The position numbers and the translations under genes were made by a program. Below, in pieces: positions 30,210 through 31,960 of a DNA stretch of 64,000 bases. Location: the sequence record MK562502. One strand, written 5' to 3'. This DNA is from Shigella phage KPS64. The notes under the pieces were generated by a model. That model ran no database searches and had not been told where the DNA came from. It saw only the letters and a list, made by a program, of their open reading frames with translations. The stretch's first letter is position 1. Each line of letters begins with the position of its first letter.

Positions 30210-30237
30210 TTGACATAGAAAATTTGGTGAGTATACT
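30210..30237 (+). promoter_or_regulatory. sigma70-type promoter
   Basis: TTGACA (30210-30215), 16-nt spacer, TATACT (30232-30237); would start transcription just before repeat module A1. Confidence 0.55.
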
Positions 30238-30267
30238 GAGCAGCATAAACCAACGGGTACTCACCAG

Positions 30268-30412
30268 CATCACTTAAGAGTCTTTTAAGAGGGTTTTTAA
30301 GTGATGCTCGGTAAGGTTCGGTTGGGTGTGGTATGGTCTGGTATGGCTGGGTTGGGTCTGGTCCGGTTTGGTGAGGGTAGTTAGTCTCAGCTACATTAAA
30401 ATGAGACTCACC
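30268..30412 (+). repeat. repeat module A1: 10-bp-stem hairpin + GGT-rich tract + terminal stem-loop
   Basis: Inverted repeat CATCACTTAA...TTAAGTGATG (30268-30306); about 70 nt of GGT/GGTT repeats; stem-loop AGTCTCA-GCTACATTAAAA-TGAGACT. Confidence 0.7.
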
Positions 30413-30583
30413 TTTTTAAAAGGTCTTTAAAAGGGTCTTTTAATGAGGTTTCGCTAGGTAGGGTAGTGTCCGGTTGGGTCTGGTAAGGTCAGGTTAGGTA
30501 AAGTGAGGTAAGGGTGGATGGTAGTAGCCACGTTAAAAATCTACCAAGTTTCTAAAGAGTCTTCTGTTGAGGGTTCTTTATAA
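30413..30583 (+). repeat. repeat module A2: iteron-like direct repeats + GGT-rich tract + terminal stem-loop
   Basis: AAAAGGTCTTT AAAAGGGTCTTTT direct repeat; GGT-rich tract; stem-loop GGTAGTAG-CCACGTTAAAAAT-CTACC; then AAGAGTCTTCTGTTGAGGGTTCTTT. Confidence 0.7.
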
Positions 30584-30606
30584 ACAACTTAACAATAAAC
30601 TAAAGT

Positions 30607-31209
30607 GTGGAGCTAAATGCTATGAAACTGTTAAATATCAAAATCACTGGCACTCGTCCTTTCCTGAGCCATGCTGATACTCTGTCAGACCCATTAAATC
30701 CTCTGACAAAGTATCACAAGTCTCTGTCTAGTAAACGTAAAAAGACTGACGAAGACTACGCTCTCTTAGCAGAGAGTCAACTGGTAACCTCTTGTTACTA
30801 CGACGAGCAACTAGGTTTTGTTATGAACGGTGAGATGATTGAGGCTTGTATCAAGTCTGGTGCAAAACTCAACAAACTTGGTAAGGTAATTGACCGAGCC
30901 ATTATGCTGACAGATGTAGTCTTCCCAATGACTATTAAGAACTGTCCAGCAAACCCACAAGAACTAGCTAAGAACCAAGACTTTATCTATGCGAAGTCTG
31001 TTAAGATTGGCACAGCACGAGTTATGAGCTACCGTCCAATCTTCCGTGACTGGTCTGTAGAGTTTGGTTTGATGTTTGATGAAGAACAAATTACCAAAGA
31101 AGAACTCTTGATGGTTCTGGAAAATGCTGGTAACCTTTGTGGTGTAGGTGATTGGCGTCCACGCTTTGGTCGTTTTTCTGTAGAAGTTATTTCAGAAGGT
31201 AATGTTTAA
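30607..31209 (+). CDS. hypothetical protein (cassette gene 1)
   Basis: 200-aa ORF; true start may be the ATG at 30621. Confidence 0.5.
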
Positions 31210-31211
31210 TT

Positions 31212-31652
31212 ATGAATACAAAAGCATTAGCAGCAAAGTTTAGTTACGGTGATACTGTATCACACTCTGAGATGGACACCTTCTTAGGTATTGTGAAGCC
31301 GACTTATCAAGGTGACATTGTTAAGTACGAAGATGAAATGAAGGCTTACGCACTTACACGCCTAAATCGACTTGAGAAGTTTATTGAGAAGCTTCTTAAA
31401 GAAGAGAAGATTTATCTGGTTACTTCAATGGGTGTTGGTTATCGTGTGGTGGAACCTAAACATCAAGCAACTATTGCAAAACGTAAAATGTCTAGTAAGA
31501 TTGGTCGTGCTTTAAAACAAGCCACTCAAGCGATTGAGAATGTGAACACTATGGCACTTAGTCATCAAGAACGTTCACGACTGATTGAACAGCAAAACCA
31601 TTTAGCTGCTATGAAAGCTAACATTAACAAGCAACGTAGAAAACCTTTCTAA
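31212..31652 (+). CDS. hypothetical protein with basic C-terminus (cassette gene 2)
   Basis: 146-aa ORF, 2 nt after the upstream stop; Lys/Arg-rich C-terminal third. Confidence 0.5.
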   Translation: MNTKALAAKFSYGDTVSHSEMDTFLGIVKPTYQGDIVKYEDEMKAYALTRLNRLEKFIEKLLKEEKIYLVTSMGVGYRVVEPKHQATIAKRKMSSKIGRALKQATQAIENVNTMALSHQERSRLIEQQNHLAAMKANINKQRRKPF

Positions 31653-31663
31653 GTTGACTAGGC

Positions 31664-31687
31664 AGCCTCTTCGGAGGCTCCTTTTTA
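31664..31687 (+). terminator. rho-independent terminator (plus strand)
   Basis: Hairpin AGCCTC-TTCG-GAGGCT followed by CTTTTT, right after the cassette. Confidence 0.5.
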
Positions 31688-31827
31688 AAAGGTCTTCAAA
31701 GAGGGTCTTTTAATGAGGTCTGTCATGGTGATGTTTGGTAGGGTTTGGCAAGGTTCAGTCAGGTAAAGTGTGGTCTAGTAAGGTAGGGTGTGGGTAGTTA
31801 ATCGGAGCTACATAAAAATTCGATTAC
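31682..31827 (+). repeat. repeat module B1 (counterpart of A2)
   Basis: TTTTTAAAAGGTCTTCAAAGAGGGTCTTTTAATGAGG, nearly identical to the A2 start; GGT-rich tract; stem-loop AATCG-GAGCTACATAAAAATT-CGATT. Confidence 0.7.
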
Positions 31828-31960
31828 ATCACTTAAGAGTCTTCTAAGAGGGTTTTTAAGTGATGTTTGGTGGTGGTTTGGTAATGTGAGGTAAGATGTG
31901 GTATAGTAAGGCGGGGTTTGGTATGGAAGGATGGCAGTAGCCTTATAAAAAATCTGCCAA
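31827..31960 (+). repeat. repeat module B2 (counterpart of A1)
   Basis: Hairpin CATCACTTAAGAGTCTTCTAAGAGGGTTTTTAAGTGATG (one substitution versus A1); GGT-rich tract; stem-loop GGCAG-TAGCCTTATAAAAAAT-CTGCC. Confidence 0.7.

Follow-up and report, generated by a model that had tools for sequence, protein, structure and literature searches.

Which genetic element occupies positions 30210-31960 of the Shigella phage KPS64 sequence, where two non-coding blocks of GGT-rich periodic DNA enclose two small genes? We analysed 64,000 nt of record MK562502, one strand (the window, meaning this whole stretch), and conclude, with a probability of about 0.95, that the region belongs to the SUSP1 clade of type II VIPR (Viral Interference Programmable Repeat) loci. 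The first-pass annotation, made from the raw sequence alone, knew of no described phage element of this kind. The element is in fact already known, from two 2026 preprints (April-June) and PDB entry 36pp, and the signature belongs to a system published only months before. VIPR comprises a RAMP-like phage protein, Vipr, the accessory gene vap, and RNAs termed vrRNAs, which carry 9-16 GGY/NN pentamers and a 3' pseudoknot (bioRxiv 10.64898/2026.04.26.720920 and 10.64898/2026.04.26.720927). All sequence-level features that define type II VIPR were found in the window, in the order promoter, vrRNA1, vrRNA2, vipr, vap, terminator, vrRNA3, vrRNA4. In the nearest public records vipr and vap are listed as hypothetical proteins and the vrRNAs are unannotated; the practical yield for the window is an annotation of four vrRNA genes, vipr, vap and the borders of the locus (Table 1).

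Architecture of the locus

The cassette proteins identify the locus. The product of the first gene (gene A) matched PDB chain 36pp_D, "SUSP1 Vipr protein", over residues 1-195 in a sequence search of the PDB (E=1.2e-129), and was identical to SUSP1 and SUSP2 Vipr at 193/195 residues. Thirteen of the 14 residues named in the electron cryo-microscopy (cryo-EM) preprint are present (H17, K33, R39, E71, M72, K82, G87, K88, R138, C173, D177, W178 and R179); the remaining one, T175 in the preprint, is V in KPS64 Vipr and also in the SUSP1 Vipr of IMG/VR. The chain match and these residues mark gene A as a small RAMP homologue with an RRM core, G-loop and thumb. The second gene (gene B) encodes Vap, which corresponds to phrog_5926. 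A PHROGs search of the cassette genes returned only families of unknown function, and neither gene had a match in Pfam or PADLOC.

The modules around this cassette were recovered where the first-pass annotation had placed them, two per block, on the + strand and nowhere else in the 64 kb, and they do belong with the two genes. In-phase GGT tracts span 30276-30399, 30418-30536, 31703-31801 and 31861-31934, all on the + strand, and no further 60-nt window of the 64 kb, on this or the opposite strand, reached the GGT-tract threshold. The tracts had been described as GGT/GGTT. They are real, and they are no loose mixture but follow a strict 5-nt period (TRF periods 5, 10, 15 and 25; 14 copies in a 10-nt register). 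The observation that they keep no ORF (open reading frame) across copies also stood: a period of 5 does not preserve a reading frame, and module spacings in related phages form several series, which are offset by steps of 5 nt.

Unit statistics were collected from 1103 units in 86 unique tracts, drawn from 33 related loci and the window. Within the pentamer, G fills position 1 in 76% of units and position 2 in 98%, and 100% of units have a pyrimidine at position 3 (T in 90%, C in 10%). The last two positions, 4 and 5, are near random, with an entropy of 1.9 bits each; AA accounts for 15% of units. Tracts hold 7-19 units, with a mode of 12, and those of the window parse as 13-15, 13, 15 and 10 units beside vipr, where the parser may gain or lose 1-2 units at a tract's 5' end. 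Two degenerate units of vrRNA1, at 30300-30309, fall inside a hairpin arm. At the start of vrRNA4, an irregular GGTGGTGGT at 31866-31874 disrupts the 5-nt register and leaves 10 in-phase units.

Each module ends in an element that had been annotated as a stem-loop with the loop consensus AGCYACAT(A/T)AAAA. A conserved structure is indeed present, but it is an H-type pseudoknot, in which a 4-bp helix takes its 3' arm from within the supposed loop. Among 36 distinct tails, which fall into four sequence types and align without gaps, this helix (S1) is paired in 100% of sequences, and three of its four pairs covary with both sides changed. The second helix (S2, 6-8 bp) has six pairs changed on both sides. 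Overall, the two interleaved helices comprise 12 pairs, nine of them changed on both sides, and 91% of cells pair, compared with 25-44% when the partner columns are slid as a control. A conserved 3' pseudoknot tail is common to all four vrRNAs of the window.

Five hairpins bracket the vrRNAs. They share 16-20 bp, 3-5 G·U pairs and a common apical motif, GUCUU...GAGGGU, and are 6-8 kcal/mol stabler on the + than on the - strand; hairpin 1 folds at -21.5 kcal/mol on the + strand versus -15.5 on the - strand (z=-6.2). The first-pass annotation had distinguished hairpin heads at 30268 and 31827, which we recovered with 93% identity, from iteron-like direct repeats. The repeats exist (30415-30440 and 31680-31700), but they are G·U-rich hairpin arms and not iterons; dependence on G·U pairs means that pairing occurs only in + strand RNA. 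Both kinds of head are one homologous structure with compensatory changes: 93% of cells pair and five pairs are changed on both sides, mostly from two or three sequence classes and hence few independent events. One member, the hairpin at 30547-30586 before gene A, was absent from the first-pass annotation; the sequence 3' of the type-b tail, including this hairpin, is conserved, with 22 occurrences in related loci.

By analogy with the hammerhead ribozymes that separate vrRNAs in other VIPR types (VIPR preprints), these hairpins may be processing signals that free individual vrRNAs. A search of 28000-34000 with the 4227 covariance models of Rfam gave only chance-level hits (E of 4 or more) and no ribozyme match; any cleavage at the hairpins would probably need a protein, for example a host RNase. 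The main text of neither VIPR preprint mentions such hairpins.

The near-consensus promoter upstream of the first block was confirmed, and the proposal that this block is transcribed from it remains probable, given the promoter match and the vrRNA transcripts obtained from the homologous SUSP1 locus. Its corollary, a long structured leader, does not agree with SUSP1, where the homologous region yields discrete RNAs of about 100 nt; small-RNA sequencing detected these vrRNAs and they co-purify with Vipr (VIPR preprints). The same preprints report programmable transcriptional silencing of a target for SUSP1. Applied to KPS64, the published mechanism would proceed as follows. Each vrRNA would be an RNA of about 100 nt with 10-15 GGYNN pentamers and a 3' pseudoknot cap. 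Vipr protomers would polymerise along it, one per pentamer, burying each GGY, and the exposed NN dinucleotides would pair with double-stranded DNA (dsDNA) that reads NNxNNx..., with every third base skipped. An R-loop triplex would form and transcription of the target would be blocked. The suggested nucleic-acid-level function holds in two of its forms, a structured RNA and a protein-binding array (one Vipr protomer per pentamer, as published), but not in the third, an origin-like element.

Table 1. Annotated features of the VIPR region of KPS64 (window positions) and related loci with vrRNAs only
Feature	Position	Strand	Basis and remarks
Sigma-70-type promoter, TTGACA-16-TATACT	30210..30237	+	consensus match 11/12; upstream of first vrRNA array; also found ahead of the only module in Felix O1
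Separator hairpin 1, 20 bp, 5 G·U	30264..30310	+	fold, covariation with other hairpin class; directly 5' of vrRNA1
vrRNA1 guide, 13 GGYNN units, NN = AA TC TG GT AT CT AT TG TG CT CC TT GA	30310..30374	+	unit parsing
vrRNA1 tail, H-type pseudoknot (S1 GTAG/CTAC, S2 AGTCTCA/TGAGACT), then T-run	30375..30413	+	covariation
Separator hairpin 2, 17 bp, 4 G·U	30409..30450	+	fold; first annotated as iteron-like repeat
vrRNA2 guide, 13 units, NN = TT TA AG AG CC TG CT AA CA TA AA GA AA	30447..30511	+	unit parsing
vrRNA2 tail pseudoknot (S1 GTGG/CCAC, S2 TGGTAG/CTACCA)	30512..30546	+	covariation
Separator hairpin 3, 16 bp, third stem sequence, same apical motif	30547..30586	+	between last upstream vrRNA and vipr
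vipr (195 aa), RAMP-like protein that would polymerise on vrRNA	30622..31209	+	PDB 36pp_D match, SUSP1/SUSP2 identity
vap (146 aa), vipr-accessory protein	31212..31652	+	143/146 identical to the ORF that directly follows vipr in both SUSP1 and SUSP2
Intrinsic terminator, AGCCTCTTCGGAGGCT then T-run	31664..31685	+	3' of vap
Separator hairpin 4, 17 bp, 4 G·U	31679..31720	+	fold
vrRNA3 guide, 15 units, NN = CT AT GA TT AG TT AA TC CA AA GT CT AA AG GT	31717..31791	+	unit parsing
vrRNA3 tail pseudoknot (S1 GTAG/CTAC, S2 TAATCG/CGATTA)	31792..31826	+	covariation
Separator hairpin 5, 19 bp, 4 G·U	31825..31867	+	fold
vrRNA4 guide, 10 in-phase units, NN = TT AA GA AA GT AT AA GG TT AT	31875..31924	+	unit parsing
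vrRNA4 tail pseudoknot (S1 AAGG/CCTT, S2 TGGCAG/CTGCCA)	31925..31959	+	covariation
Hairpin with next gene's promoter (TTGACA-17-TATTTT, 31978-32006)	31959..32006	+	fold; right border of locus
Orphan vrRNA loci, no vipr or vap	L004 (Felix O1), L007, L014, L015, L024, L029, L033-L036		

Predicted targets in satellite phages

A BLAST search for the locus in 5426 complete E. coli genomes returned a single kind of match, a vrRNA-like stretch in 144 chromosomes. Around five of these matches we found four islands of about 11-12 kb and one short remnant disrupted by an insertion sequence (IS). The islands encode a serine recombinase, phage baseplate and tape-measure homologues, an HNH endonuclease and small ORFs. 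They lack vipr and contain one vrRNA gene, which stands alone between a promoter and a terminator of its own. They are the satellite phage described in the preprint. Compared with the window genes at 45300-48340, their tape-measure protein shows 28% identity and their baseplate protein 68%, which fits a parasite that would exploit the tail assembly of KPS64.

Guides were compared with 20 satellite loci, 15 of them from IMG/VR, under the published one-nucleotide-skip rule: each GGY was replaced by one wildcard and the NN positions were scored. Of the guides from vipr-bearing loci, 47/71 had a match of at least 80% of NN positions in the satellites, versus 3/71 after shuffling. In an earlier run, 0 guides reached this level in 51 kb of neighbouring chromosomal DNA; that control run parsed the first module incorrectly in L012 and L013, and the count of 47/71 comes from corrected parsing.

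Two KPS64 guides stand out individually. vrRNA3 matches the satellite tape-measure gene over codons 10-24 at 27/30 NN positions, without a mismatch in its first 11 units (shuffle P<0.01); the match is in frame with the skipped bases at wobble positions, the predicted target sequence reads CTGATTGAGTTAAGTTTTAACTCTCAGAAAGTT..., and the site occurs in at least 59 E. coli genomes. vrRNA1 matches a satellite gene of 92 codons on its antisense strand at 21/26 positions, and here too the skips fall at wobble (shuffle P<0.01). BLAST of the "filled-in" vrRNA1 and vrRNA3 targets against the 5426 E. coli genomes found no allele closer than the collected satellites. vrRNA3 is predicted to aim at the start of the satellite tape-measure gene and vrRNA1 at a small upstream satellite gene. 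These two matches and the clade-wide counts fit the pairing reported for VIPR guides, with one base skipped per unit and the skip at a wobble position. They suggest that KPS64 would turn the locus against a satellite integrated in E. coli chromosomes and so silence an element that parasitises its infections.

The remaining guides were less informative. vrRNA4 matches 17/20 positions at codons 15-24 of another satellite allele's tape-measure gene, overlapping the vrRNA3 site, a score that is not significant alone because the guide has only 10 units. Within the 64 kb itself, vrRNA1-3 had no match above the shuffle range; the best own-window match of vrRNA4, 17/20, equals the top of its shuffle range. 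vrRNA3 matches the KPS64 copy of the tape-measure gene at only 12/30, and satellite-encoded vrRNAs matched the phage window at background level only.

Two side observations concern these sequences. The first 40 residues of the KPS64 tape-measure protein (46109-48340, - strand) are nearly identical to satellite allele L044 2456-2575, which places the vrRNA3/vrRNA4 site in a region common to helper and parasite. The satellite's own vrRNA matches a REP-like palindromic host element (AGGCCTGATAAGCATAGCGCATCAGGC...) at 23/26 NN positions, above the shuffle range of 13-unit guides; the site lies at L037 24577-24614 (E. coli EC12, between cmoB and torZ) and also at L039 18856.

Alternative readings and related loci

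Several points weigh against the VIPR assignment. Transcription, processing, Vipr binding and silencing in KPS64 would all be carried over from SUSP1, and both VIPR sources are preprints. For vrRNA2, no target above chance was found in the 20 satellite loci, and exact NNx pattern scans of IMG/VR gave 0 matches for each of vrRNA2 and vrRNA4. The 10 units of vrRNA4 also match KPS64's own tape-measure gene at 16/20 (manual count). Finally, an intrinsic terminator precedes vrRNA3 and vrRNA4, for which no separate promoter was recognised. Some of these features would be expected if the locus were partly decayed or idle in KPS64, with vrRNA2 and vrRNA4 guiding nothing and persisting as recombination scars. 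The absence of a significant target for these two guides, the register-breaking GGTGGT that leaves vrRNA4 only 10 units, and a module number that varies from 0 to 5 among relatives all point that way. Yet the vipr and vap genes are intact and retain every key residue, the four tails and five hairpins are likewise intact, and the satellite sample comprises just 20 loci, while the preprints found identifiable targets for only 20/41 vrRNAs of the clade. We therefore consider decay improbable, though worth keeping in mind.

Two other readings dispense with a guide RNA altogether. In the first-pass annotation the GGT tracts were likened to the thrombin aptamer, and tandem two-tetrad G-quadruplexes in a long leader could regulate downstream genes in cis: GGNNN repeats could form two tetrads, and GGTTGGGTGTGGTATGG at 30320-30336 resembles the aptamer. 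However, position 1 is not G in 24% of units, the invariant position-3 pyrimidine is unneeded by a quadruplex, Felix O1 and other relatives retain the module without the cassette, and in the cryo-EM structure of the preprint every GGY sits in pockets of the protein. These observations make a quadruplex leader very improbable. Still less credible, in our judgement, are DNA-level iterons or phased repeats for a replication or partition protein, that is, an origin or centromere-like site. The 11-nt direct repeats, a 10-nt super-period equal to one DNA helical turn, a position among replication genes and the StbAB annotation of a nearby 11-nt repeat in phage KhF3 would suit such an element. The tracts, however, occur on the + strand only and lack the strand symmetry of a dsDNA element; the "iterons" pair through 3-5 G·U and form hairpins 6-8 kcal/mol weaker on the other strand; the pseudoknot covaries; NN positions match foreign DNA under an RNA guide rule; and three relatives have no module at all.

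Some narrower candidates were also set aside. A site for a TRAP-like ring protein has similar architecture, but the protein here is Vipr. Read on the antisense strand as a Rho utilisation site, the tracts would conserve the dinucleotide AC where YC is expected. Decoys for BREX (GGTAAG) or EcoP1I (AGACC) do not suit NN positions that are near random with AA in 15% of units. An R-loop origin, a Chi-like or RecA-loading tract, ToxI-like antitoxin repeats and retron RNA misfit strand-specific RNA covariation.

The conservation search proposed with the first-pass annotation found modules in related phages, at 0 to 5 per locus over 36 loci from GenBank and IMG/VR. This comparison independently reproduces the published GGY/NN code, the pseudoknot and satellite targeting. 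Ten of the 36 loci have vrRNA modules without vipr in the stretch examined, and three more have neither: in L009, L011 and L021 (about 5100-5340) the homologue of the 126-aa ORF is immediately preceded by just one promoter, whose leader hairpin is of another kind. Module DNA was found in 230 phage records versus 132 with Vipr, about 15 of the latter being unrelated phages. In Felix O1, tblastn (E up to 10) of the whole 86,155-bp genome found a homologue of neither Vipr nor Vap. The genome has a single GGY-periodic tract (L004 3027-3160; tract at record 57758-57821), in a promoter-driven vrRNA whose hairpin, GGY register and pseudoknot are intact. The register is also preserved in the orphan guides generally, and 7/15 match satellites versus 1/15 shuffled.

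Across relatives, vipr-vap DNA (30622-31652) is 93-97% identical, compared with 82-93% for the flanking ligase gene (28946-30046) and about 72-80% for downstream genes (32047-33286) in the same phages. That the cassette is far better conserved than its flanks suggests that it has recently moved horizontally between phages, and recombination inside the modules on either side is a plausible route. In Felix O1 the head of the one module resembles that of the first module in the window and its tail that of the last, a pattern expected after such recombination. Orphan vrRNAs could use the Vipr of a co-infecting relative, as the vrRNAs of vipr-less satellites must, or could act as decoys for a rival's Vipr. 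The composite proposal that vrRNAs may live apart from Vipr in cis, with the cassette exchanged via modules and the hairpins acting as maturation signals for a host RNase, is tentative, and we would sooner bet against it than for it. The main text of neither VIPR preprint mentions the orphan vrRNAs of Felix O1 and relatives or the conservation of cassette versus flanks, and the PhageMaP preprint on Felixounavirus Bas63 has nothing on this region.

The window belongs to an Ounavirinae phage, nearest over 30000-32100 to Shigella phages Sf17, Sf18 and Sf19 (96% identity), and the VIPR region, two non-coding blocks around ORFs of 195 and 146 aa, lies between the DNA ligase gene (28946-30046) and a 126-aa ORF (32047). 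Between the ligase gene and the VIPR promoter lies a 49-aa hydrophobic ORF (phrog_22006; window 30055-30204); among the relatives inspected it was seen in L021 and was absent from Felix O1, L011 and L015, and L009 has a shorter unrelated ORF at this spot. In the KhF3 record (L001 3138-3148), the depositors call an 11-nt repeat a "possible binding site of StbAB", which nothing found here supports.

Comparison with known systems

The closest described system is the type II VIPR locus of SUSP1. Vipr and Vap are 99% and 98% identical, the vrRNAs share the GGYNN code and 3' pseudoknot and lie on both sides of vipr-vap, and the guides match the same kind of E. coli satellite with the skip at wobble positions. 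The two differ in the number of vrRNAs on each side (2 + 2 in KPS64 versus 1 + 3 in SUSP1), in guide sequences and in the host phage, KPS64 being closest to Shigella phages Sf17-19.

A vrRNA module also resembles the TRAP site of the Bacillus trp leader, in which GAG/UAG triplets are separated by 2-3 non-conserved spacer bases, each triplet is bound by one subunit of an oligomer, and a stem-loop lies 5' and a hairpin 3' of the tract. However, the "spacers" of a vrRNA carry information whereas those of TRAP sites are linkers, and Vipr forms a RAMP filament whereas TRAP is a ring. VIPR arrays separated by hammerheads likewise have a structured element between vrRNAs, which in KPS64 is instead a 16-20-bp G·U-rich hairpin.

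As described in the preprints, VIPR shares with the Cas7 filament and crRNA of class 1 CRISPR systems a RAMP protein on a guide RNA, a thumb that flips bases at a fixed period and a dsDNA R-loop. Unlike those systems, it has no repeat-spacer array, no cas1/cas2 and no protospacer-adjacent motif (PAM), and its guide is non-contiguous, with two of every five RNA bases pairing with two of every three DNA bases. VIPR was published as a new way of recognising DNA with a guide RNA and has been proposed as a CRISPR forerunner.

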